This document shows, in pieces, positions 3,400-55,454 of a stretch of 64,000 bases of DNA. The notes beneath the pieces were generated by a model. The model saw only the letters and a program-made list of their open reading frames with translations. It had not been told where the DNA came from and searched no databases. This DNA is from Naegleria gruberi (taxonomy: Eukaryota), in NCBI GenBank assembly GCA_000004985.1, contig GG738904.1; one strand, written 5' to 3'. Numbering within the stretch: position 1 is the first letter of the stretch; each line of letters starts with the position of its first letter. The position numbers were made by a program, and so were the translations under genes.

Positions 3400-5454
3400 A
3401 TGATTCGCTCGGATTTGTTTTATACAGAGGAACAAACACCATCCTCTTCTATCAATATGGTGGATGATGATGTATTATTTTCATCAGCAGCAACAGACTC
3501 GTCATCTCATCATCAGCCTCCTAATCAGGACCCTAATGCTCCAATCGATATGAATATTTGGATGCTATCCGTTGNNNNNNNNNNNNNNNNNNNNNNNNNN
3601 NNNNNNNNNNNNNNNNNNNNNNNNAATTATTGTTAGGTATTTAGTGTTGGGTAAAAAACATTGATTAATTTATTCGATCCTGAGGAATACTTTTATTTGA
3701 GATTGTTTATCTGGGTTACTTATAATTTATGTTTTATAATGTTTGCACTTGTGTTGACTGCTCTAGTTGCTCCATCTGCTGAAGGATCTGGTTTGGCAGG
3801 TATTAAAGCTATTTTGAATGGTGTCAGAGGTTTAAAGGATGTTCTAAGTATGAAGACAATGATTGTGAAATATTTATCATTACCTGCAGTCCTTACAGCT
3901 GGTTTATATATCGGTAAAATGGGTCCTTCCATTCACATTGTCACTTGTGCTGCTAAGAATTTACTGAAATTTAGATTATTCGAGTCCATAAGAAAAACCA
4001 AAACTCTGAAACAAGAAATGATTGTATGTGGTATTGCTGTCGGTTGTGCAGCTAACGATGGTGCTGTCGTGGGAGGTGTATTGTTTGGAGCAGAGTTAGT
4101 TGGTACCTATTATTCTTTGAGAAACTATTTCAAGAGTTTTTATGCAGCTTTTATTGCCTGCATGACTTCTCGTTTATTGCACAGTGCTGTCAATTTGAAT
4201 ATCAAACCATTCTTGACATGGAATGTTAAGATTGTTCCTCCATCTTTCACTCTTCCAGAATTATTTTTCATGCTTTTTGTTGCCATTGTAATGTCTTTTG
4301 TTGGTATTGCAGTAGTCTTTGTCAATGAACAATTGCTTGTTTTGAGAGATAAATATGGTAAATTGCATCTTGGACCTTTCAAGTTTGCCAAGTATGCCAC
4401 TAACAAATTGGTAATTTTAACAGAAAACAGAATTATTTTCACAATTATTATTACTCTCGTTACTAGTTTCCTTTCATTCCCTCAAATGATTGGTAAATAT
4501 ATGAGTATTGGTGGTGTGCCTATTTTCGAAGAATTATTAATGGCAAAACCTTTAACAACAGTGAATGGCGCTAAGGGAGAATGGATTCAAGGAAATATTT
4601 CAGAAGTATTTATTACAATTTCTATATTTATTACTGTCAGATACATTTTGGCAATTCTTACAACAGTTTTGCCTGTTTCTGGTGGTTCATATTTGCAATT
4701 GTTGATTATTGGAGCTTCATTTGGTAGACTTGTAGGTGAAGGTCTTGCCTTTATTTTACCTGATGGTTTTAGTCCAAACCATCCGATTGTTCCAGCCAGT
4801 TATGGTCTTGTTGCTGCTGCTGCTTTGACTAGTTCACAAACGCAGGCCTTCAGTTCTGTATTTATTCTGCTAGAATTAACAGGTCATGGTGTTCACTTAC
4901 CTGCATTGGGAGCATCCTATATTGGAGTTGTTATTTCCAGATGGTTGTCTTACAGTGCCTATGACTTTGTTATCAAGTTTAGAAAATGGCCAGCTGTCCT
5001 TGAATCAACAACTGACTCTGACGATATTAGAGTTAAATACGTCATGCAATATGTTGATAGTTTGCCAATTTTGGAAGAAAAGGCAAGCTTGAGAAAGATT
5101 GGAGAATTTTTGGAAAAGCCAGATTTGGCCAAGACTATTCCAATTGTTAATAATAAGAGTGATTTACTTCTTGTTGGTTGTGTCAATACTAAGAAATTAC
5201 AAGATTATTACAATACTATGAAACCAACTCTTGAAGGCAATCCTGACTATGATACAGAAATTGAAATTGAAAAGAATACTTGTCCAATTACCATTTCTGA
5301 AGATACACCTCTCGTTTTAGCTCACTTACTCTTCTCCAAATTGAATTTGGATGACGTGTTCGTTGTTTGGAGAGGTCGTTTAATTGGTCAAGTTCAAAAG
5401 TCTAGTATTATTGCTGAGCTTACTGATAGAAATGCTGGTTTTGGTGATGCTTAA
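3400..5454 (+). CDS. CLC-family voltage-gated chloride channel/transporter with C-terminal CBS domains; N-terminal region interrupted by an assembly gap
   Basis: ORF 3661..5454 carries CLC motifs: GSGLAGIKAIL (GSGIPE-like), GKMGPSIHI (GKEGP-like), and PVSGGSYLQLLIIGASFGRLVGE (GxFxP block), followed by a CBS-like C-terminus. ORF 3400..3584 (acidic/Ser-rich) runs directly into the N-run and is probably the cytosolic N-terminus. Confidence 0.75.
3585..3624. other. Assembly gap (40 N)
   Basis: A run of 40 'n' characters. Confidence 0.99.
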
Positions 5455-25142: not shown

Positions 25143-26354
25143 TCATTTTTCTAATGTATTGCATTGTTTCTTCTCAACAACAAGATAACTAAGATGATGA
25201 TTCATTGTTTCACTCAAAAGTTTAGCACCATCTTCCATTTGAATTCCAGTATTGTAAATTGAAAGAGAAACTAATTGATATAGTCCACAGAGGTGTTTAA
25301 TACCTTCATCAGTAATATAATTTCCATTAAGATTAAGATTGGTCAATTGTTTCATTTCACCAATAAATTCAGCTCCTTCCTCACGAATATTATTCGAACG
25401 AATGTCAAGATTTGTTAAATATTTCATTTCACTAATATATTTAGCACCTCGATTACTTAGATAATTTTTACCAATATCAAGCTTAATCAATTGTTTCATT
25501 TCACTAATGTATTTAGCACCATCATCCCCAATTATATTTTTACGAATATTAAGATTGGTCAACTGAGTCATTTCACTCACTAATTTTGCTCCCTCAACTC
25601 GAATATTATTATTACTAATATTGAGATCTACCAATTGATGCATTCTCATTAAATGTTCAATGCCTTGATCACCAATACGATTTCCACCAACATTAAGACT
25701 GGTCAATTGTTTCAACGCACCAATGAATTTAACTCCTCTAACACCGATTTCATTATAATAAATATTGAGATGTGTAAGTTGTCTGATTCCATTACAGATG
25801 AATTTGGATCCATCTTCTCCTATCTTATTATGAGAAATGTCAAGATATGTCAATTGTTTCATTTTGCTAAGATATTTGGCTCCTTCTGAACTAATCCTAT
25901 TATACGAAACATTGAGCTTTGTTAATTTTGTGAGATTGCTAATATAAGAAACGCCTATATCACCAATATTATTCATTTTCATGTCAAGATCTACCAATCG
26001 ATTCTTCATCATTGCAGAAAATATTTTACAATCAAAAATAGTTTCGTTTCGTTTCTCCACTATTAATATTTCAATATTTTGAAGTAATTGACCTTTCAGT
26101 TTGTTATCATTTCTGCAAGTTAAAGAAAATCTTGATCTTTCCGAAATGACATTCAACCACTGTTTAGAAATTAGAGTACAATTTAGAATAAATTTAACAT
26201 CAAGAAATGATAAAATTTCAAAAATTGAATCATCTGAAAAGATGAGCAGAGAGTGTTTCAATTTTCGTTTAACTTTCGAATAGGATGTACTCGATGATTT
26301 GCTTGTTGTCTTTATGCGCATTTTTCTTTTAAATCTTTCTATTCGAAAGTGCAA
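25143..26354 (-). CDS. F-box / leucine-rich repeat protein (RNI-like LRRs)
   Basis: N-terminal F-box-like segment LLIFSDDSIFEILSFLDVKFILNCTLISKQWLNVIS, followed by about 11 LRR units of ~24 aa of type L..L.I..N.IG..GAK.ISEMKQLT. Confidence 0.7.
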   Translation of the reverse strand: MHFRIERFKRKMRIKTTSKSSSTSYSKVKRKLKHSLLIFSDDSIFEILSFLDVKFILNCTLISKQWLNVISERSRFSLTCRNDNKLKGQLLQNIEILIVEKRNETIFDCKIFSAMMKNRLVDLDMKMNNIGDIGVSYISNLTKLTKLNVSYNRISSEGAKYLSKMKQLTYLDISHNKIGEDGSKFICNGIRQLTHLNIYYNEIGVRGVKFIGALKQLTSLNVGGNRIGDQGIEHLMRMHQLVDLNISNNNIRVEGAKLVSEMTQLTNLNIRKNIIGDDGAKYISEMKQLIKLDIGKNYLSNRGAKYISEMKYLTNLDIRSNNIREEGAEFIGEMKQLTNLNLNGNYITDEGIKHLCGLYQLVSLSIYNTGIQMEDGAKLLSETMNHHLSYLVVEKKQCNTLEK

Positions 26355-42441: not shown

Positions 42442-45400
42442 ATGGAACATTTACTCGTGTTGACTACTGTTGAAAGAATTGGTGATTCTCTTCCAAGTAC
42501 ACCTTCATCACAAAGAAGAAAGGGTTTCAATTTGAAGGGTTATATTAAAACACTCAATGAATTGATTGTTTTGCCAAATATTGACTTACACAAAGTGGTT
42601 CAACCTCTCGTTGATCTCTACGATAATGTCTCTAAAGTAAGTAGTTTTTCAGAAGGCTGTAGTGGTTTATTAACGCTACATGGTTTTTTTGTTGCAAATT
42701 TCATTATCATCATGTTTGGCGCCACAATTTTGTATCTTCCAATGACACAATTTTTCAACAATAACAACAACAAAACAAAATGATGATCAACTAATAATAT
42801 CATCATCATGCTGGTTATTATGTTGATATTTATCTAACAAAAACAAATTATCATATATAGACCACAATCAATGCTACATTAAAACCTTCTGAGAAAAGAA
42901 CAAAATTAGAGTTGATCAACAAATCAAAACTCATCATTCTCAATCTATTATCGGATTATATAAATTTTGCCATCGAAAATAAGGAAGTAAGTATGAATTA
43001 TTGTGAGGTTCATCAATATGAATTTGTTATTATTATTATTAATAATATATTTAATAGCTTGTTTTGCCAAATCATCACTTGAACAATTTGTTCTGTCAAT
43101 TTGATAATGATGATCTCTTGTTGGAAGAGAGACGTCAAGAACAAGATGAAGAAGAAGATGAAGATTTAGTTGCACTTGTTAAGGAACAATCAAAGAATGC
43201 TCATCAACCATCACAATCAGCTTCAACAATTACAGAAAGTACAAATGAAGGTAACGAATCTCCAAGTATTAAAAATGGATCTCTCAATCAGATCAGTGAT
43301 TTCGAATATGGGCATGAAAGAGGTAGATCACCAAGTGGCTTGGGAGCATCTCTTGATTATTTAAATGCTTACAAGCAAAGAAAACAAAAGAAATCTTCAT
43401 CAAAATCACAAAGAAACTTTAATGTAAAGAGAAGTGCTGCCACTTTTACTCAACCAAAAGAATTGGACGAAGCAACAGCTCTCAACATTATTCAATTAGT
43501 TTCCACTAGATTATTATTACAACATGATATGTTCTATGATGCCACACAAGAAGAAATCCAAAAAACAGCAGTTAATAATTATCTTGAACAACAAATTTCC
43601 TATAGATGTATGGAGATACTATTCAAAATAAGTGTTTGTAAACCAGATACTGTTTTCAAGACTATTGTTGGTGATTCATTACCTACATCACTTAATAATA
43701 ACTGTATGGATATCAGTTTTAATACTGATCTTCAATCTGACAAACTTCCTTTCTCTTCCTCTCTTTCACATTTCAAACTGATCGAATATGTAAATTGGAC
43801 AGTTGGTAATTTAGAAAAACTCTTAAAGGCAGTCAATGAAAACATGAAAGGTTTTACCAAATATTTGGAAGTCTTAACACCTCCTTTAAGATTAGCTATA
43901 TGGAACTTTATTACAAACTATAATAATGAATTTGTTGATATCATTAAGAATCCAAATGCTTCAATTGTTAATACAGCTAGAGAAACATTTGATAATATTT
44001 ATAAACAAACAGGAAAGAAACAAAAAAACAAGACATGGCCAGCACTTGCCACTTTATGCGTTTTGACTGCAGATGATCTTCTAAAGTGTGTAAAGGCAGG
44101 TAATGGTAAAAAGTTTGGTGGCAGTGAAAATATGACAACATTTATTCACAAAGATCTCTTAAAAGCAATGGAAGATAAGGATAAGTCTCTTATTTTACCT
44201 CCATTGATTGACATTTATAGAGCTGTATCATATGCACCATCAGATGTAGAAACAGCCTTTGCTGTTCTTTCTCTTTTGGTGGAAGAAAAATTCCTTTCCA
44301 TTTTTGTACCAGAACCAACAACAGGAAAAGTTTCTAAATGCTATAGTCCAGAAGAGTTGAATGAACTCGAAATGTGGACATTTTATGTAACAACACTTTA
44401 TAGAAGAAGCCCAGAAAAATGCAAAAAACAACTAATGATACCAATAATGGCAGATGGTACTTTAGAGCAAAAACAAACAGTTGCCAAAGTACTTCTTTTC
44501 CTTCTTACTGATAGATCTTCTCAATTTACCTACAATAGAAAGTTAGAAGTAGACTTTAAAGTACTTGCTTCATCTCTTCGTGAATTTTTCATTTCGACTA
44601 CAGATCAATTCAAAGGTAAAGCAAGAGAAACTGGTGATGATAATACTCCAACATTAGCACCAAGTGCATCCTTTAGAACACCAAAGAAAGGCTTTGCAGC
44701 TCTTTTAAGAGAGAAAGTAGGTGGTAAGGACAGTAGTAATTCTCCTACTGGATTGGGATCATTCGCAGGTCAACCAAACTTTAAAATGTTTGATACTGTT
44801 AACACAATTCTTCACGTTTTTTGTGCTGATCCAAGGTTTTTCCTTACAAAGTCAAACGAATCCGATCAAAATATCAATAATTTTGCCTATTTGGCTGACT
44901 TCTTTGTGCTAAATTCTGACCCAATTGTACAAGATCAAATAACTAGACTTTTCCAAAAGCTTTTCTTAGAACAATATATTAAGAACTGGGGAGATGATTT
45001 ATTTGTTGGATTCAGTACTATCTCAACAAGAGTTTTGTCAAGACTATCACCTGCTCTTTTCCTTCTTAATGAATTGGAACAATTGCAAGCAACAAAGACC
45101 TTACTTTTCCTTTTGAGAAACATTACCTATTGTGCTAAGAAATTCTATATTGCTAACAGAGACACTTATTTACTTTTGGAACACATTAGAACTAACCCTG
45201 ACAGAATTAATACTCTTGAAGTTTTATGTAGTAACTTATTGGTATGCCTTTGCTCAACTGATAAGGAGATTTGGCAGTCTACTACAAGATGTTTGAGAGA
45301 TGTTTGTGACCAAATTGAAATTTTGAATAATCACAACATTAAGAAGTTGAATTACAATTTTTACAGACAATTGGCAAGCATTGACTTGAATGGTAAATTT

Positions 45401-48400
45401 TACAATGAAAGAAAGTCACAAATCCAACTTTTCAAGAGAGTTGAAACTCAAACACCATCCATTTTGAAAGCCTTTGGTGAGGTTTATAACAGATGGAAGG
45501 AACTTCTTGATCAACTCAAGAGTGAAGATTCTGCTTCAAATATTACCTTGAGAGATTTGTTCCCTAATTACACCTCTTTGCTATGTGCTCTCGGTGGTGT
45601 ATGCATTCAAGATACAAAGGATGAAGATTCAAGCTTTGTTCTTGATTTCTTAAAGCCAGAGGCAACAAGTGCCAATAATGTTGACAGTTATATGGATGAC
45701 TTGATGAAACAAGTTATTTCAGACGATGTCAATGTCAGACAAATGGTAACCATCTCTGTTTCTACTGATTTATCACCAAGTCTTTTCACTAAATTGTTCA
45801 CTGCCATGAAGGCTTCAGTTCAAGAACAATTCGGACAAACATTTGTTATTAGTCAAAAGAATAACTTACTTGTTGATCAATATCTTCACATTCTCAAGAC
45901 AATTGTTGAAAATCCAGATACTAATACTGATCTTTCTCTTGCTCAAGAAATTGATTCCATTACTGATCTCTTTGCTAACTATTGTACACACAGCGAATTT
46001 GATAACAAGGATGTCCTTGAGTTGAAGAAGAAATTATGTCAATTCCTTGAAGTTTTGATGAGCAAAGTTGAATACTTGACTTTCAAGAACATTGAAGAAC
46101 AAAAGTTGAGAAGAACAATCATTGGTCACGTTATGGAATGGACAACTGATTCTGTCTTTAAAGAAAAGACATCAACCGGAGCAAGTGTATCAACTCCTCG
46201 TGTTGCTTCTGAGGCTCCTCTTCTAGAAAACAATTCCCAAGTTTCAACTGAAGTCAAGAAACTCTACACCGATCTTGATTTGTTGTGCATGAAGGCATGT
46301 ACTTCCCTTATCAATGGTATGGTTATTGCAAACGATGAAAAAGGAAGAGAAGAATATTCAAAATACTTTGCTTTCTTATTGAGATTCCTTGAAAAGGCTA
46401 AAGACAGTACTTTTACAGCTACAATTTACAAGGCCTTCTCTAGATTATTGCAAACAAACGTCAGTTTTGGTCTTGAGTATTACATGTCAAAGGTCTACGA
46501 TAATAATAACACTATTAGATCAACATTCTTGGGATTGCTATCTGAATTGATCAAGAAGGGACTTTTGGTTGAAGAAGAAGAAAAAAATAAGCAAGACAGA
46601 GTTTCTATTTCTGAATACCAAGAAATTATCAACAAACTTGTCTTTACCAATAGAAAGAGAGCTCTTTTTGCACTTTTTGATAAGTGCAAGAATCCAGAAA
46701 AAGATGATTTGTGTGAAGCTGTTATTAGAGTTTATCAATCAAAGGGTGAAATTGATAAGAATTTATTAGATTTGTTCCGTCAAAGTGTTACCAGAGAAGT
46801 TGCAACCACACCAAAATCACAACCTGAAACTCTTTTCAGAGCTAACTCAACCTCTACTAAACTCTTAAAGAAGTACTGTTTGAGAGTCAGTAACCCATAC
46901 TTGACAACTGTTATTGGTGGGTTCATCGATACTATGTGTACTAAGCCAACCAAATTTGAAATCGATCCACTGAAGGCTCAACAAAGAGGAGAAAGCGTTG
47001 AAGAAAACGTTGAAAATATTCTTGAAGTATTACAAGAATTTATTGACTGCCTCTGTGATTCAGTCCAACAAACACCTTACACCTTCAGAATGTATTGCAG
47101 ATATTTGTACGAAGAAGTTGGTAAGAAATTCACTAAACCAGATGATGACAATGATGAACAATTTGACTTTAAATATATTGCAGTTGGTGGTTTCTTAATT
47201 TTGAGATTGATTTGTCCAGCCATCACTTCTCCACATTTGTATGGTTTGTCAGGAAGTGATATTCCTGCTGACTCTAGACGTTATGCAATCATTCTTACAA
47301 AGTTGGTTCAAAACTTGGCAAACGGTATTGTTGACTCCAAGAAGGAAGAATTCATGAAGAATTTTGTTGATATTATTAGACTTAATCTTAACAAGATTCA
47401 AACCTATTTTGAAAAGATTGCTGCTCCAATAGTTGAAAATGAAGAAGTTTTGAGAATTGAAGAAACAGTCACTGAAGATGAATTGAAGGAAGCATATGAA
47501 GTTCTCTATAGATTCTTCTATAACTATGCTGATACATTGAGAGAAGAATTAAGTTCACTCTATGATGATATTGAAGATGAGGAAAAGGAAGTATTGGAAG
47601 AAGTTGATATCAATGAAAAGCCATCCTCTAAACAAAACGGTAAATCTCTCAATGATCTCTTAGAAAAGGCTATTGAACAATTTGGTAAACCAGCTGAAGA
47701 AGAAAAAACAGGAAGAAGACTTTCTGTAAAGCTTAGCAAGGATGATGAGTTCTCCAATCCATTACTTAAGGAATTGCTCAGAAAGAATGAAAAGAAAGAT
47801 ACCTCAAAGATTGCTGAAATGAAATTCTTCTCTATCAGTGAACACAAGAATGCTAAGAATCAACGTATAGTTTATTTCATTCCTTACAATTTGGATTTGA
47901 CTAGATTCTCTCTTGATTTATACTTGTACTATGTTCTCAAGAGTATGGAAACCATTTGGAAGGAACCTTATATCATTGTTGTAGATTCTACCTTCTTGAC
48001 AAAGAAATTTGATATTCGTTTGTCTGTATTTATTCAACTTTCCAAACACATTCCACAAGGTGCAAAGAAGAATCTTCAAGAAATTTACTTGGTTAACCCA
48101 AATACATTCTTCAACAAGACCACTAAGAAGCTTGTCTCCATGTTAAGTCATAATCGTTGGAAGGTCATTACTACCAGCTCTTTGCCAGCTGTCACTGACC
48201 AAAAATCAAAGACTCCAACCTCAAAGGATCCATTAGAACTTGTCAAACCTGAACATTCTATGCTTCCATCTCTCACTCAACAATTGTATGAAAAGAGTGA
48301 AATAATATATAATACTGAAGTTGTTCTTGCTTCTCATACAACTGATTGTGAAATTAGACTCTTTGATCAATACATGTTTATTGTTATCAAGGGAGAAAAG

Positions 48401-51337
48401 TTTATTAATAACAAGGTACCAGCAGATTGTTTGGAACATGTCAATGTAACAAAGATTGCCAATATTGCTGTAAAGAAGTCATTGTTTGGTAAATCAAGCA
48501 AGGCCACTAAAGATTTTGTTGTCAAGTATATTGATGATGAAGATGCTGAAGCAGCCTACAACTTTAGAGCTCAAACCATTGAAGAAAGAGACCAAATTAT
48601 GCAAGGTATTAGAAACTATGTTGAAAGAAAATCAAGAGGAACAAAGACTGGAAAATCTCTTGAACGTGAATTTAAGAGACTTAAACTTCAAGATGTACCA
48701 GGTCAACTCCTTGCTATTTCATTCTTCAATCTCGATTCTAAACACACTCCAATTAGAGCTAGTGCTTATTCGTTACTTGCTTCTATCTTTGAACAAGTCA
48801 AGATTTCTTCTCATGGTTTGATTTTAGAAAGTGATGCTGCTTATGTTCCAAGAAATACTGAAAATACTGTTTTGAGAATTAGTGAATACGTTGCCAGAAA
48901 TAAGCCTGAACTCACTTTAGAATTCATTTGTGAAGCTCTCAATGCCTTCAAGACAATCCAAGGAAATAAGTCCAAGTTGAAGTTTGCATCCTTCATCCTC
49001 CCATGGCTCGATAACTTGTCAAGATTTGAAATTTCTACTAGTGTTGATGAAGTTGATGAAAAGACCGAAACAATTAAGAATTGGTTCGAAAACTTTACCA
49101 AACTCTGTATTGCCAATGAAGAAATCTATCCAAAATTACAAAATGTTTGGAAGCACGTCTGTAAACTCTCTTTGCCACTCATTAGAATTGCTATTGAGAG
49201 TGTTATCAAACAAGGTACAACAAGTGAAATGCTCATGAATGGAGAACAATCTATTATTGGCGATATTTTAGGAACTATTTTGTTGCACTCACCTCTTCAA
49301 TGGAATGTGGCTCAATTTATCATTAACAAGATTGTTGAACCACTCATGACAGAGGAATTGAATATTGACCTTTTGAACAAAGCAACAGTTAAAGAGTTGG
49401 TGAAATCAAAAGATATTCTAGGCAAGATTCCAGTTTACATGTCTTATCTCCTTATGTTGTCTTTTAATAGTCAAATCAATTTGTTAGAGAATTTGCCATA
49501 CGTACTCTTTATTATTTCTCTCTTCTTGGGTGTTGGTTCAGATACCTACTTGAGATCAATTGTTTATGGTATTTGTTGTAACTGTGTTCACTCCCTTGTT
49601 TTGGAATTGCCAGCATGTGAACAATTTGAGCATGTAAGAGCCAAATTGCAAAAGCTTCATTTGAGAGTTCTTGAAAAGGACATCAAGTCAAGTTTCATGG
49701 GTGGTGAACATGAACCACAACCTTTTGCCTCATACTCTGATTTTGTCAATAAGGTTTCACAAGGAAAGGTAACATTCGATGAAACTACCATGTACAAGTA
49801 TGAAGATATCATGAGATACTTTAAGGAAATCATTGAATGCTTTGACTTTAGTTACGATAGCCTTATTCAAGCTAGGGGTAAGACTTTGAAATCTCAATTT
49901 GGTTCTACCATTATAACCTCATCCAAGGCAACTCATAGTGTTATTGAAGAATCATCTGAAAATTCCAAGGATATGGATGAAGATGGTACAGAAAATGATA
50001 TGACAGAAGGAGAAGTTGATGATGAGCATAACGGTTCTAATCCAAGCACTAGCACCTCAGATATCGTTAAATCTGGCAGTGATACCATCAAGAGTGTTTG
50101 GTTGAAGATCTTTACCAACTTATGTAAGGATACCATGAAGACAGCCAATCTCTTATTGTTCCCTAAATCTTTAATCTCATTCAGTATTATTTCCACCTCA
50201 GAACAATCATATGATATGATTCCATTTGTTCTTAACTTTATTGGTAAGCGTGGTGTTGAAACTCTCTCCGAAAATGAGCTAATGTTGTCTGTTCTATTGT
50301 CAATTAACCAATTCTGTATTAATATGGTTGTTGAAAAGGATAGAATTGAAACTTTGAGAAAGATTATTATCTTTGGATTCTTCTTGTTGACCATTGCCAA
50401 CACAAAGATTTATTCTGCTGTAACCAAGTTGCTCAGTACAGTTTTTGCCATTCTTTTTGAAGCTAGAGATATTCATGACGGTTTCTTGTCTATTGGTGAT
50501 TACTTTAATCAAGTTTTCAGATCTGACTACTCCAAGTACCTATCCATCACTAAAGAATTTGAAGAAACTGTTGGACTTTCATTTGGCCAACACTTCTCAT
50601 TCACCGTTTCTCTTCTTCTCATGAAGGGACTTGCTATTGATGACTCCACCATTAGAAAGGCAACTATTTCTCTCCTCAAACAAATCCTCTCTATCAGTTA
50701 CAAACTCAAGTTTGAACCACAAAACCAACTAGGCTTTATTGCTGCTTTAATTCCATTCGATAAGCAGTACAACTCTGTATTATATAGTGAACAACTCTAT
50801 TCTGAAAGCATGTTCACTAAGGAAACTGTTTTCCTCTTCCAAAAGTACCTCTTTAGCATTACTGCATCCAACATTGATCTTGATAGCTGTGCTTCTGTTT
50901 ATAGATCACTTGCAAGAGGTTTTGAAGCCATTCCTGATACTTTTGCAGATGTTTTCCAAGATCACCACAGTATGTCTCAAGTCATTAAGGTATACACCTC
51001 CTCTCAAGATGATACTATCATTGAACATAGTTTGAATCTTTTCAAGATTATGAGTAATAATGCCAAATCAAAGAAACTTCAAGTTAAGGAACCATTTGCT
51101 GATTATGGATTCAAAGGTTTCCGTGATCAAACTACATTCCAAACCACTAAGGATGACTTGAAGAAGAAATGTCAAAAGACTTTGATTACATTCTTAACTG
51201 AAAACTTTAATGAACAAGAATATCCATCCATGGATTCTGTAATTATTTCCAAGACTGGTATGAAGAAATCATTCCTTAAAGCCGCCTCTTCAAGTCCAGT
51301 TGTAAGACAAGCATCAGGAACAAACTTTAAGAAATAA
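42442..51337 (+). CDS. NF1: Neurofibromin (NF1)-like RasGAP with RasGAP and Sec14/CRAL-TRIO-like regions; 3 exons (42442..42636, a short exon ending at 42986 whose 3' splice site is unresolved (42912 is one in-frame candidate), 43058..51337)
   Basis: RasGAP arginine-finger block TLFRANSTSTKLLKKYC (NF1 has TLFRGNSLASKIM) and the FLR-PAI motif GGFLILRLICPAITSP. The N-terminal exon pattern KLIILNLLSDYINF resembles NF1 QLIILDTLEKCL. The last exon is a 2757-aa ORF. Intron 2 is 72 nt (GTAAGTATGA...TTTAATAG); intron 1 is about 220-275 nt. Confidence 0.85.
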
Positions 51338-51408
51338 AATTTTTATCATAATTCTTTGAATTCAAGAACAATATTTTTGCAATGTTATACATATCTCCTT
51401 ACTAAATA

Positions 51409-52112
51409 TTGATATATTATCTTAAGCACAAATATTATTCATTAGAATATTATTTATTTAAAAAAATGTCAAAACCAACTTTGAATATTTGCCTGTTGGG
51501 AAATGTTGATTGTGGAAAATCAACACTGACAGGAAAATTATTAGAAGTTATCGGAGGTGATTCTTCCTATTCTGAAAAGATTAAAAAATCAACTAGTAAG
51601 AATTTTGTCGAGTCAAAAAATCATTTCTTGAATTTAATGGATGTTTGGGGTATGTGGAATTAATTGTGATTAAAATTGAAAAGTATTGATTTAAAGTGGA
51701 TCAATACCTCCTGCTGGAAGTAGCAAAGGTATTTGAGGAAGATTCGAACAAGGGTATTAGAAATATAGTGATAATTGTATTGGATGCCTCGTCAGGTGGA
51801 TATGAGGCCGGCCTTAGTCAACTAAAACATCTCTTGCTATTTTTGAAAACTCTGGAAGGTATTATGCATAACAAACAATTTATATTTTGTGTGAATAAGA
51901 TGGATCACTCAAGTGTTAATTATTCTGAATTGAGATTTAAAGAAATTGTCAATGAAGTATCTAGAATGGTCACTCGGCTTGGATTCTCACAACCACCACC
52001 ACAATTCATTCCAATATCCTCACTGAAATGCGAAAATATTTTAGAAAATTGTGAAAACATGAGTTGGAATGCAAGTCAACCTTCACTACTGGATGTTATA
52101 AACTCATTGTAG
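51409..52112 (+). CDS. eEF1A/EF-Tu-like GTPase G-domain-only protein (~220 aa) with partly degenerate motifs; 2 exons (51409..51649, 51697..52112)
   Basis: G1 GNVDCGKST and G4 FCVNKMD are present, with eEF1A-like blocks (RFKEIVNEVS; IPISSLKCENILENCENMSW versus eEF1A [20 protein letters not shown]). No RGITI-type G2 motif and no domains II/III. A 47-nt intron GTATGTGG...TTTAAAG (51650..51696) joins the two ORFs in frame. Confidence 0.55.
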
Positions 52113-52125
52113 CAAAAATCTTTCA

Positions 52126-52196
52126 TGTTCCTGCCAGGAATTGAACCCCGGACTTTCTAAAATGGTCCGTTGTAAAATTCTACAGTTTTCAAAATA
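52126..52196 (-). other. tRNA-like fragment: a B-box/T-arm-like GGTTCAATTCC and an anticodon-like stem, but no canonical D-arm or acceptor pairing
   Basis: The minus strand reads ...ACGGACCATTTTAGAAAGTCCGGGGTTCAATTCCTGGCAGGAACA. There is no A-box, the acceptor stem cannot be paired, and the anticodon loop would be 11 nt. It is probably a tRNA pseudogene or tRNA-derived remnant, not a functional tRNA. Confidence 0.2.
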
Positions 52197-52310
52197 AATC
52201 AAGAGTATACATTTTTCGCAAAGTTTAATCTCTTGATAGTTAGTAATCTGAAAGGGAATCTTCACCTATTTATCTCTCAGTTTTCATAAAGAAAAATATA
52301 TAAAACAAAA

Positions 52311-53073
52311 TGATAATCAGCTGAGGATAGATTTGATCTTTTCAATGACATTTTTTCTATTGCCACATCAACTGTTGAAAATATTGATTCCTCTTTAATG
52401 TTTGAAATGCTTCTTGCTTTGAAGAATGATGACACTAGTATTTTGTGGGAAAATATGTATCAATCCATTCTCAAACTTCATCAATTGTTGGCCGCCGAAA
52501 GTGTTTCAAACTCATTCTCTAGAATGGTAAAAGATTTGGTTAAAAACAAGTATGAATCAATTGGATGGACCAATGTACCAGGAGCAGATGAAGATGAGGA
52601 AAATCTTGATGAATTACGTCCATCTCAATTTGGCCTGTCGTTTTGGTCTCACTGAATGTGTCACTGAAGCCTTTAAACGTTATCAAGAAAGAAACTCAAC
52701 CATTATTCCTCCAATTCTTCGTAATGCTGTTTATAGAGCTGTTGTTTCTAATGGTGGAGAACGTGAATATTATCAAATTTTGAATCAATTCAAAGCTGAG
52801 CAAGATTCTGTGGAAAGAACCAAGTTAGTGTATGCAAGATTCCACTCTTGCAAACGACCTTGGATTTGGCCCTTTCTCCACCATGTTAAGCCACAAGATA
52901 GTATCTTCCTTATTAGAGAAGTTGCAAGAAATGTACCAAGTGGACCAAACGTTGCTTTTGTCAGAACTAGATATGATGCCATTCTCTCAAAATGTGGACA
53001 AGATCAAGTCAGTAATAGATTATCATATGGGGTTGGTTCTCTATTCACTAATATCTTTGAAAGGGATGAATAG
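52311..53073 (+). pseudogene. Remnant of an M1-family (aminopeptidase N/ERAP1-like) aminopeptidase: C-terminal helical domain only, with a +1 frameshift near 52620-52635
   Basis: ...LACRFGLTECVTEAFKRYQERNSTIIPPILRNAVYRAVVSNGGEREYYQILNQFKAEQDSVERTKL aligns with aminopeptidase N [63 protein letters not shown]. The upstream frame (52311..52655) matches the preceding part of the same domain but lies in a different frame. No catalytic HEXXH or GAMEN domain is present anywhere upstream. Confidence 0.55.
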
Positions 53074-53103
53074 ATTCAATATTTTGCTCCAAATATTGAA
53101 AAA

Positions 53104-53688
53104 TTGAGCATGAAGCATTATTATATTAGTGGAATGAAACAATTAACATTACTTAATATTGGGAACAATCAAATTGGTGTAGAAGGATCCAAATTCATAC
53201 ATGAAATGAAACAATTAACATCACTTGATATATATTATAATGAAATTGGTGTAGAGGGATCCAAATTCATAAGTGATATGAAACAATTAACATCACTTAA
53301 TATTAATTACAATCGAATTGGTGATGAAGGAGCCAAATTTATAAGTGAAATGAAACAATTAACATCACTTGATATTTATAACAATGAAATTGGTGTTGAA
53401 GGAGTCAAATCAATAAGTGAAATGAAACAATTAACATCACTTAATATCAGTGGAAATCAAAGTGGTGCCGAAGGAGTCAAATTAATAAGTGAAATGAAAC
53501 AATTAACATCACTTAGTATTAATTACAATCGAATTGGTGATGAAGGAGTCAAATTAATAAGTAAAATGAAACAATTAGCATCACTTGATATTAGTGGAAA
53601 TGGAATTGGTGATGAGGGAGCCAAATTAATAAGTGAAATGAAACAATTAAAATCGCTTAGTATTCATAACCAACAGATGTTTAAGTAA
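53104..53688 (+). CDS. LRR-only protein or gene fragment: 8 near-identical 24-aa RNI-type leucine-rich repeats encoded by a 72-bp nucleotide tandem array
   Basis: Units of type EMKQLTSLDIYNNEIGVEGVKSIS repeat with high nucleotide identity. There is no F-box, unlike the paralog at 25143..26354. It may be a truncated or recently expanded copy. Confidence 0.5.
   Translation: MSMKHYYISGMKQLTLLNIGNNQIGVEGSKFIHEMKQLTSLDIYYNEIGVEGSKFISDMKQLTSLNINYNRIGDEGAKFISEMKQLTSLDIYNNEIGVEGVKSISEMKQLTSLNISGNQSGAEGVKLISEMKQLTSLSINYNRIGDEGVKLISKMKQLASLDISGNGIGDEGAKLISEMKQLKSLSIHNQQMFK
53131..53660 (+). repeat. 72-bp-period tandem repeat array (about 7-8 units) forming the LRR coding sequence
   Basis: High nucleotide identity between units (GAAATGAAACAATTAACATCACTTGATAT...). 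Confidence 0.7.
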
Positions 53689-53793
53689 AATCCAAAAAAA
53701 AGGATTTGGCCAGACTCTGCCTCACACTCATTATAATAACTGTTAAGATTCTACTCTTTTTTTTTACTTAATGTATCTAAATCTCTGCCCATT

Positions 53794-55454
53794 CTATCCT
53801 AAGGTGTGAACTCCTTGTTGCGAATTAAATGGTGCTTCGGTTGATGTTGTTGGGTTATCATCTTGTGCAATAGGTGTGGTGGCTGTTGATTCAGTTGCAT
53901 AATTTGTAGTTGCATTGGATTGTGAACTGCTTGTGGCACTACTATCAACAGGTGTTGTAATGTTAGTGTTAGCAGCAGGTTGTGTCATGGTATTGATTAT
54001 CCTTGGTTTGACATCTTCCAAAAGGGTTGGAATAGATTGAGAAAGTTCCTTCTCTGTTAACTCCCACAACTTTGGAAGAAAGTCTGAATACTTCAATATT
54101 ATTCATTACAAGTATCATATTCTTCAACAATTCTGGAAGAGCCTCCCTCAAATGATCACTCTTTGGTTTGACGAGTAAAAAGTTGTACATAACTTGAAGA
54201 ATGGTGAGCCACAATGAAGAGAAACCATTATCTTGTTGACTTTCAGTATTATTCACAGGTAACATTCTTGGTAAAAAGTGCAGGAATATTCTAGCAAGTA
54301 AGTTGTTGGCTCTGACCCTAAGCTCTTCTAAAGAGGAAATATCCATTTCTGTATTGTGATTGGTTTGATATTCAGTTGTCTTTGGTTTGAGTGTGAGAAG
54401 AGTTTGGAAAAATGTCTTGAGCAATACACGATCCATACACATCATTAAGAGTTGATCATTGAGGAGATATTTTAGATTTTGTGAGTCTTCTTGGTTGGCA
54501 GTGAATGAATATCTGAAATCACAACTATAAACAAGAGATCTTTGTAAGGTTGAAAGTGCTTGGGTTCTAATATCTCTTTGGAGGTGGCTCAACATTTGAA
54601 TTTGACTATTATTCAATTGTGACATTAGTAAGTTCAGAACATTGACCGGTCCACTAGTGTTAATGCCACCAGTGCAACACAATACTGCTATACCTTCAAG
54701 AATTGAAAGCCAAGCATTGATCCACTTGTTATCCAATTTGATGACGTTTTGGGATGAGTTAGCAGATGAATAGGCAATGGATACAATTCTCTTCAAAATT
54801 TCCATAACCAAATTTTCCAAAATGATTAAAATGTCCATTGTGAGAGCCATAAGCTTTTTAAGGGTGGATACAAATTGTTGGGAGCTATTGCTTCCATTGG
54901 AGGTGTTTTGAATATTTACATTTGTTGTAATGGAAGAACTCAAAACGGACAAGATACTTTGGACAATGTTGGGAAATTATCAGGAACAACAAACCATAAC
55001 CCGAAATGAGTAGTATCATCCTGTAATGTAGAGTATTGAAAACTGAGAGTAAGTACATCTAATGATCTGGTAATTAATTGTAATGGTTGTGAAGGTTTGA
55101 TGGATGTGAAGAGTGAGCTATTAGGATTATTATTTATCCATGAGGAGGAAACGTTGGAAATACTTCTCAAAATCTTGAAAACTAAATGATCCCACAAATC
55201 TACAATAAGTCTTGATGAGCTATCAGTAAATATTGTGGAAGGATTAAGATTGGTAGCATTTGTACGATCTTGAATTTGGTAGCCATTGGTGAGAGTAGAG
55301 TTTCACCTTGTCTCGACAAGAACATGTGAATCATAGGAAGTAAACTATTATGGAAAACACCCAACATGGTTTCACTCCATTGCTTACCAAGGTTATCAAT
55401 AAGGACAGAGCATTTCTTTTTGACCAATCTCCCATTCTGCTTGATTTTCAACAC
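53794..55454 (-). CDS. Hypothetical multi-exon helical protein (possibly degenerate); four ORF segments that can be linked by short introns
   Basis: ORFs 55200..55454, 54940..55197, 53969..54952 and 53794..54096 lie head-to-tail on the minus strand. For example, a 40-nt intron GTAATGAATA...TTCCAAAG joins ...PELLKNMIL to LWELTEKELSQSIPTLLED... in frame. It ends in a Thr/Ser-rich tail. No family assigned. Confidence 0.3.

Follow-up and report, generated by a model that had tools for sequence, protein, structure and literature searches.

The question raised by this locus is whether the open reading frames (ORFs) lying between two convergent genes of Naegleria gruberi are working genes or pieces of genes brought together by rearrangement. 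The locus was studied in a window of 64,000 nucleotides (nt) from contig GG738904.1 of assembly GCA_000004985.1 (strain NEG-M), and it holds two ORFs similar to the translational GTPase eEF1A, a spacer, part of an M1 aminopeptidase gene and an array of leucine-rich repeats (LRRs). The patch is, with considerable confidence, non-functional DNA between convergent genes, built by DNA-level rearrangement that included a partial aminopeptidase copy joined to an LRR array without an F-box. The first-pass annotation of this DNA had proposed incomplete gene pieces at rearrangement junctions rather than ordinary coding DNA. This proposal is borne out, and firmly so for the peptidase piece, which has a parent, truncation at both ends and a set of lesions.

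The peptidase piece carries most of the evidence and is located as follows.

52321-53120, plus strand: dead partial duplicate of an aminopeptidase gene, with the ERAP1_C domain only (Pfam, tblastn and DNA alignment).

The conceptual translation of 52320-53073, with its frame change repaired, matches ERAP1_C, the C-terminal domain of M1 aminopeptidases (Pfam PF11838), with E=5.3e-35 over profile positions 36-288 of 318. It also aligns with structures of aminopeptidase N and puromycin-sensitive aminopeptidase in the Protein Data Bank (PDB), within their C-terminal helical domain (chain residues of about 596-864), and neither the frame change near 52620 nor the TAG at 53071 breaks this alignment. 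An exhaustive HMMER search with 52621-53070 as the query gave a 598-amino-acid (aa) protein, P0004, as the top match with 87% identity; the remaining relatives were far weaker, the second best being an M1 peptidase of Willaertia magna at 46%. The 90% cluster of P0004 includes XP_002681536.1 (EFC48792.1), a 959-aa protein named 'aminopeptidase [Naegleria gruberi]'. The piece in the window is a near-exact duplicate of residues 651-924 of this protein, which is therefore called the parent here. A search for an intact M1 paralogue had been advised earlier, and this is the gene that it finds; it is assembled separately, on a contig of 707,703 bp, as against the 297,120-bp scaffold that holds the window.

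The limits of the copy are sharp. When the full 959-aa parent was compared with the whole window by tblastn, the sole match was 52323-53121, which corresponds to parent residues 651-925; the M1 catalytic domain, with its GxMEN motif and HExxH-18x-E zinc site, was absent from the window in this comparison. The DNA was also aligned to L004, the genomic DNA of the aminopeptidase orthologue in another Naegleria strain (Logan run SRR25266757). Homology to this orthologue extends exactly from 52321 to 53120, and identity collapses on either side. The right end of the homology reads ...EKLSMKHY, and the next codon (53122) opens an LRR unit. The earlier description of an M1 C-terminal fragment was correct about the ERAP1_C domain and the lack of a catalytic domain, but not about the end of the fragment, which crosses the TAG at 53071 and reaches 53120. 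The final 34 codons of the parent (926-959) are missing, and there is no poly(A) tract at the copy. Therefore, it can be concluded that the copy is not a classical retrocopy. The copied region is intron-free in the L004 orthologue. That orthologue is called as two ORFs, 3-947 and 977-2773, with 30 nt between them, which implies that an intron or a change of frame lies 5' of the part copied in strain NEG-M.

The copy carries the following lesions, and an annotated protein lies across them.

52622..52623 (after 52622), plus strand: frame-shifting deletion of 5 nt; the orthologue has TTCGT.
After 52834, plus strand: net deletion of 16 nt (17 nt lost, 1-nt insertion), from the DNA alignment to L004.
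52880, plus strand: further insertion of 1 nt, from the DNA alignment to L004.
52955..52956 (after 52955), plus strand: in-frame deletion of 6 nt, which loses W-N of the parent's NVAWNFVR, from the DNA alignment.
53021-53025, plus strand: small complex change, from the DNA alignment.
53071-53073, plus strand: nonsense change TTG>TAG at Leu909 of the parent (TTG in the orthologue), from DNA and protein alignment.
52552-53073, plus strand: 'predicted protein' NAEGRDRAFT_73400, 173 aa, an exact match to XP_002671594.1 / EFC38850.1 / D2VWJ3.

Around 52622, the parent protein reads DELRPFVLNLAC, while the copy gives DELRP and then, in the next frame, (H)LNLAC. This frame change had been noticed before and attributed to a +1 slip in a TTT run; the change itself is real, but it is a 5-nt deletion and one among several lesions. 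An intron bridging the frame change was considered and ruled out, because homology to the parent is continuous at this point and just 5 nt are missing. Between 52834 and 52880 the true frame is displaced, and the annotated ORF gives VYARFHSCKRPWIWPFLH where the parent has MYALAYTQQIPLLQTTLDLALSP. Homology to the parent extends 16 codons beyond the TAG at 53071-53073. The copy is unable to make a peptidase: it lacks both the zinc-binding catalytic domain and a start codon of its own, and it contains four indels and a stop. Residues 1-23 of NAEGRDRAFT_73400 and an internal stretch of 18 residues are out-of-frame translation, and the entry appears to be a mis-annotation of an ORF inside a pseudogene.

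The copy is also young. It differs from the NEG-M parent at 4 amino acids in 262 comparable codons (258/262 identical, about 98.5%), and the parent differs from its sister-strain orthologue at 14 of the same codons. The distance from copy to parent is smaller than that from parent to orthologue; therefore, the copying took place long after the strains split. Between the copy and the L004 orthologue, synonymous divergence (dS) is 0.61 and nonsynonymous divergence (dN) is 0.038. Judged from about 4-5 nonsynonymous changes in 614 sites, the age of the copy would be roughly a few per cent of the time since the strain split. The expression 'gene graveyard', which had been used for the locus, implies old decay, but this copy is very young and keeps about 98.5% protein identity to its parent.

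The peptidase copy is followed directly by the second incomplete piece.

53122-53688, plus strand: orphan LRR array of seven 24-residue units, a terminal partial unit and a stop (Tandem Repeats Finder, Pfam LRR_6).

Tandem Repeats Finder reports 7.6 copies of a 72-nt period at 53120-53664 with 83% matches, and the ORF of the array matches Pfam LRR_6 with E=9.5e-33. The register of the array begins at 53122, at a unit boundary (YISGMKQLT...), directly at the junction and in the frame of the peptidase tail. The sole in-frame ATG ahead of the array (53110) belongs to the peptidase copy. The LRR array had been described as lacking an F-box, and this is confirmed, as Pfam finds no F-box in its ORF and nothing in 51338-53120 is similar to the F-box N-terminus of a paralogue in the same window. 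In this paralogue, at 25146-26354 on the minus strand, Pfam finds an F-box with E=1.4e-4, which is above the cut-off, and LRR_6 after it. The last unit and stop of the array (…SLSIHNQQMFK*) resemble the end of the paralogue (…SLSIYN…); therefore, the 3' end of the array looks native and its 5' end looks to be missing. The 72-nt units of the F-box/LRR paralogue are 69% alike, with 4.4 copies detected, and those of the orphan array are 83% alike over 7.6 copies, which suggests that the orphan array was recently amplified in tandem or homogenised. A single-sequence AlphaFold model of the array is a regular alpha/beta solenoid with a mean confidence (pLDDT) of 82. In PDB fold comparison, this predicted structure is matched best by the RipG4 LRR domain and Legionella LegL1, and then by the LRR domains of ribonuclease inhibitor and NLR proteins. 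The array could also be imagined as an insertion that splits the peptidase copy; this was ruled out, as no homology to the parent is present 3' of the array.

Upstream of the peptidase copy lies a stretch in which a third object had been proposed.

52113-52320, no strand assigned: spacer of 208 nt, with the supposed tRNA-like piece (52126-52153, minus strand) inside it and no match.

Comparison of the spacer with the parent peptidase, with L004 and with the remainder of the window gave no significant match. One candidate explanation was that it is an older, diverged upstream part of the peptidase (VFKINQEYTFFAKFN compared with VYKFNYHKTGFYRVN, in the conserved GFYRVNY region); it was rejected, as 296 of 2000 shuffles do as well. 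The first-pass annotation had listed three incomplete objects, and the peptidase fragment and the LRR array stand. The tRNA-like remnant with a B-box does not. The B-box pattern GGTTCRANNCC has one match in the window, at 52137-52147 on the minus strand, where 0.51 is expected, and 45 of 100 shuffles contain at least one. ARAGORN found no tRNA in the window, also when introns were allowed, and lowered thresholds gave only calls with introns of 179-310 nt. Rfam gave no tRNA match at E<=10 in 51300-53900, and the supposed tRNA stretch of 96 nt folds no better than shuffles (z = -0.57). The tRNA remnant is therefore rejected as a chance 11-mer.

The remaining incomplete piece is encoded by two ORFs.

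51466-51663, plus strand: eEF1A-like ORF A, with the G1/P-loop block LLGNVDCGKSTL and the next helix, ending in TAA (GTP_EFTU residues 3-41).
51696-52112, plus strand: eEF1A-like ORF B, which encodes the back half of a G domain and its NKMD motif (G4), 34% identical to human eEF1A 110-235.

ORF A aligns with residues 3-60 of archaeal EF1A and with residues 4-48 of human eEF1A, and ORF B matches EF1A in the PDB with up to 71 bits. The two ORFs are in different frames and show GTP_EFTU homology only (E=2.7e-14). Their relation could be a hypothetical 47-nt GT..AG intron (51650-51696) or a frameshift. Switch I and DxxG are not recognisable, in any frame, in the segment that faces eEF1A residues of about 49-109. 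Residual switch-I coding in the gap of about 50 codons between A and B was tried as a candidate but proved not significant, as 553 of 3000 shuffles matched it. The TAG at 52110-52112 (human eEF1A residue 235) marks the exact point where homology to eEF1A ceases, which is also where domain I ends, and none of the beta-barrel domains II and III is found near the two ORFs. The ORFs therefore encode a degenerate G domain only, and the upstream eEF1A-like gene had rightly been called truncated.

In a word-index protein search, the only match of the eEF1A-like ORF was P0002, a 320-aa protein with GTP_EFTU only, at 48 bits and on virus-like contigs. The metagenome scan gave a P-loop match only. P0002 is encoded on giant-virus-like metagenome contigs (L001 4168-7147, and L002), and its P-loop reads GNVDSGKST where the window has GNVDCGKST. 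It adjoins a second GTP_EFTU gene, and PP2C, TTL, kinase and ribonucleotide-reductase genes are close by. The idea that the eEF1A-like ORF came from a giant virus was examined and dropped, as cellular EF1A scores higher (71 bits against 48 bits for P0002) and a scan of IMG/VR gave no relative. The same word-index search returned only the self match with the peptidase ORF and gave no self match for the NF1-like C-terminus. It missed the parent, which is about 98% identical; therefore, its negative results for the eEF1A-like ORF weigh little.

The whole patch occupies the 3'-3' space between a convergent pair of genes.

43064-51337, plus strand: NF1-like RasGAP/CRAL-TRIO gene, with a RasGAP and a divergent CRAL/TRIO domain.
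End near 53794, minus strand: GBF1-like gene, the 3' neighbour of the patch.

The NF1-like (neurofibromin-like) gene is one unbroken ORF of 2757 codons and ends 129 nt upstream of the eEF1A-like start. On the minus strand, the GBF1-like gene at 53794-54952 shows two ORFs, 53969-54952 and 53794-54096, which overlap in different frames. Near 54096, the sole GT..AG by which they could be joined spans about 19 nt; therefore, the GBF1-like gene either ends at 53969 or contains a frame change. G+C content is about 33% across the whole window, as in an AT-rich nuclear genome, and composition is unbroken at the locus. A search by neighbouring genes for the orthologous locus in other Naegleria gave no match. 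Literature searches gave no mention of the accessions of the locus.

These findings allow a route to be proposed for the patch. An internal aminopeptidase piece of 828 nt (parent codons 651-924) would have been copied from another chromosome region, and the right end of the copy would have been joined (53120/53121) to an F-box-less LRR array whose start coincides with a unit boundary. This would most likely have happened when a DNA break was repaired by copying of an ectopic template, or through a partial segmental duplication and a later deletion. The eEF1A-like ORFs and the LRR array are probably dead as well. Several observations weigh against this account. In the peptidase copy, 4-5 indels stand beside about 4-6 inferred substitutions, and such an indel/substitution ratio is well above usual neutral ratios. 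It fits only if error-prone copying or a deletion bias is assumed, and there is a hint that some of the indels may date from an error-prone copying event itself. ORF B and the LRR ORF are stop-free over 138 and 194 codons, for which the chances are 2e-5 and 3e-7, respectively, in random sequence of the same composition. Such frames are improbable; therefore, the two ORFs were recently inactivated, were freshly copied from divergent parents or are still coding. The pieces may have been brought together in a single event or may have accumulated stepwise.

The last of the three states of these ORFs leads to the alternative that survives best, in which the patch would be a birthplace rather than a graveyard and would hold one or two living chimeric or novel genes, namely an F-box-less LRR protein of 192 aa that starts at the ATG at 53110, or a spliced eEF1A-like G-domain protein of 199 aa. 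The long open frames agree with it, but very recent copies would have open frames too. The LRR array continues the frame of the peptidase tail, which would happen by chance in one of three cases. Similarity among the units is higher in the array (83%) than in the F-box paralogue (69%), and the LRR model is confident (pLDDT 82). A 47-nt GTATGT..AG interval joins eEF1A-like ORFs A and B in frame; however, the product would have no switch I, no DxxG and no domains II and III. In addition, neither ORF was found, with any start tried, in a protein collection that includes the NCBI gene set. A living gene is therefore considered unlikely. A related history, in which all three pieces were stitched in one error-prone template-switching or fragment-capture event and the LRR ORF, with its peptidase-donated start, is a nascent expressed gene, is held to be rather improbable.

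A further alternative is an assembly or sequencing artefact. On this view, a read error would have produced the frameshift, or mis-assembly would have placed the peptidase piece here, while the real gene is intact. The assembly, an older Sanger draft, has a gap elsewhere in the window (3575-3624), and exact look-ups of window ORFs in the Logan and NCBI-derived collection gave no match. That gap, of 50 N, is the single N run in the window; no Ns occur within 48 kb of the locus, and both junctions lie within continuous sequence. Moreover, the lesions comprise indels of 5, 16, 1 and 6 nt, a nonsense codon and point changes, which is not one homopolymer slip, and the intact gene is on another scaffold. 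It had been suggested that long reads might reduce the frameshift to an assembly error and reveal upstream exons of the peptidase nearby; the set of lesions rules this scenario out. An artefact is thus very improbable, and it is firmly supported that the peptidase piece is a young dead pseudogene fragment and not the product of a homopolymer or assembly error.

Gene fragments in the same orientation and close together are a pattern of fragment-carrying transposons in plants. Capture by a mobile element, as Pack-MULE- or Helitron-like cargo, or a processed retrocopy was also weighed, since 2.3 kb hold three unrelated gene pieces that share one orientation and no source was found for the 208-nt spacer, but it is a most unlikely origin: unlike such transposons, the patch has no terminal inverted repeats, terminal hairpin or target-site duplication at its own borders or those of the copy (a repeat search of 51300-53900 gave short imperfect pairs only, with no inverted or direct repeats at either set of borders), and a retrocopy would keep the 3' end of the parent, which is missing here together with a poly(A), while intron loss is unscorable in a region that is intron-free in the orthologue.

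Among known systems, the rearranged and non-functional patch is most readily compared with duplicated non-processed pseudogene fragments and the ectopic 'filler' DNA found at repair junctions. It shares with them an internal fragment of a gene of which an intact version exists elsewhere, sharp boundaries, the absence of poly(A) and transposon ends, disabling indels with a stop, and a position between convergent genes. It differs from them in the high indel/substitution ratio of the peptidase copy for its youth and in that two further pieces of genes, both incomplete and oriented the same way, adjoin the copy; the mechanism in this case is also one that we infer. The copy shares the ERAP1_C helical domain with M1 aminopeptidases such as aminopeptidase N, puromycin-sensitive aminopeptidase and ERAP1. 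Unlike them, it lacks the N-terminal and catalytic domains as well as the C-terminus, and it has a broken frame; it is a relic without the function of the family. The array has the 24-residue LRR_6 repeats and the RipG4/LegL1 folds of F-box/LRR proteins (FBXL-type proteins and their bacterial mimics GALA/RipG and Legionella LegL), but it is an orphan without an F-box or any N-terminal region and starts right after the peptidase copy. The eEF1A-like ORFs share the P-loop and NKxD with eEF1A/aEF1A translational GTPases, and the back half of domain I is 34-40% identical. In contrast to these GTPases, the ORFs of the window have no switch I, no DxxG/His and no domains II and III, and their two blocks are in different frames.

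The value of these findings is mainly curatorial. The locus is ordinary genomic debris with no bearing on an open biological question. XP_002671594.1 / D2VWJ3 should be counted neither among proteins nor among the stand-alone members of the ERAP1_C family. The locus is a clean and datable partial gene duplication in a gene-dense protist genome, and the high indel load of the copy might inform on DNA break repair in Naegleria. If the stitching of the pieces in one event and the nascent LRR gene were true, the locus would document how a gene was born through the shuffling of fragments in a heterolobosean.

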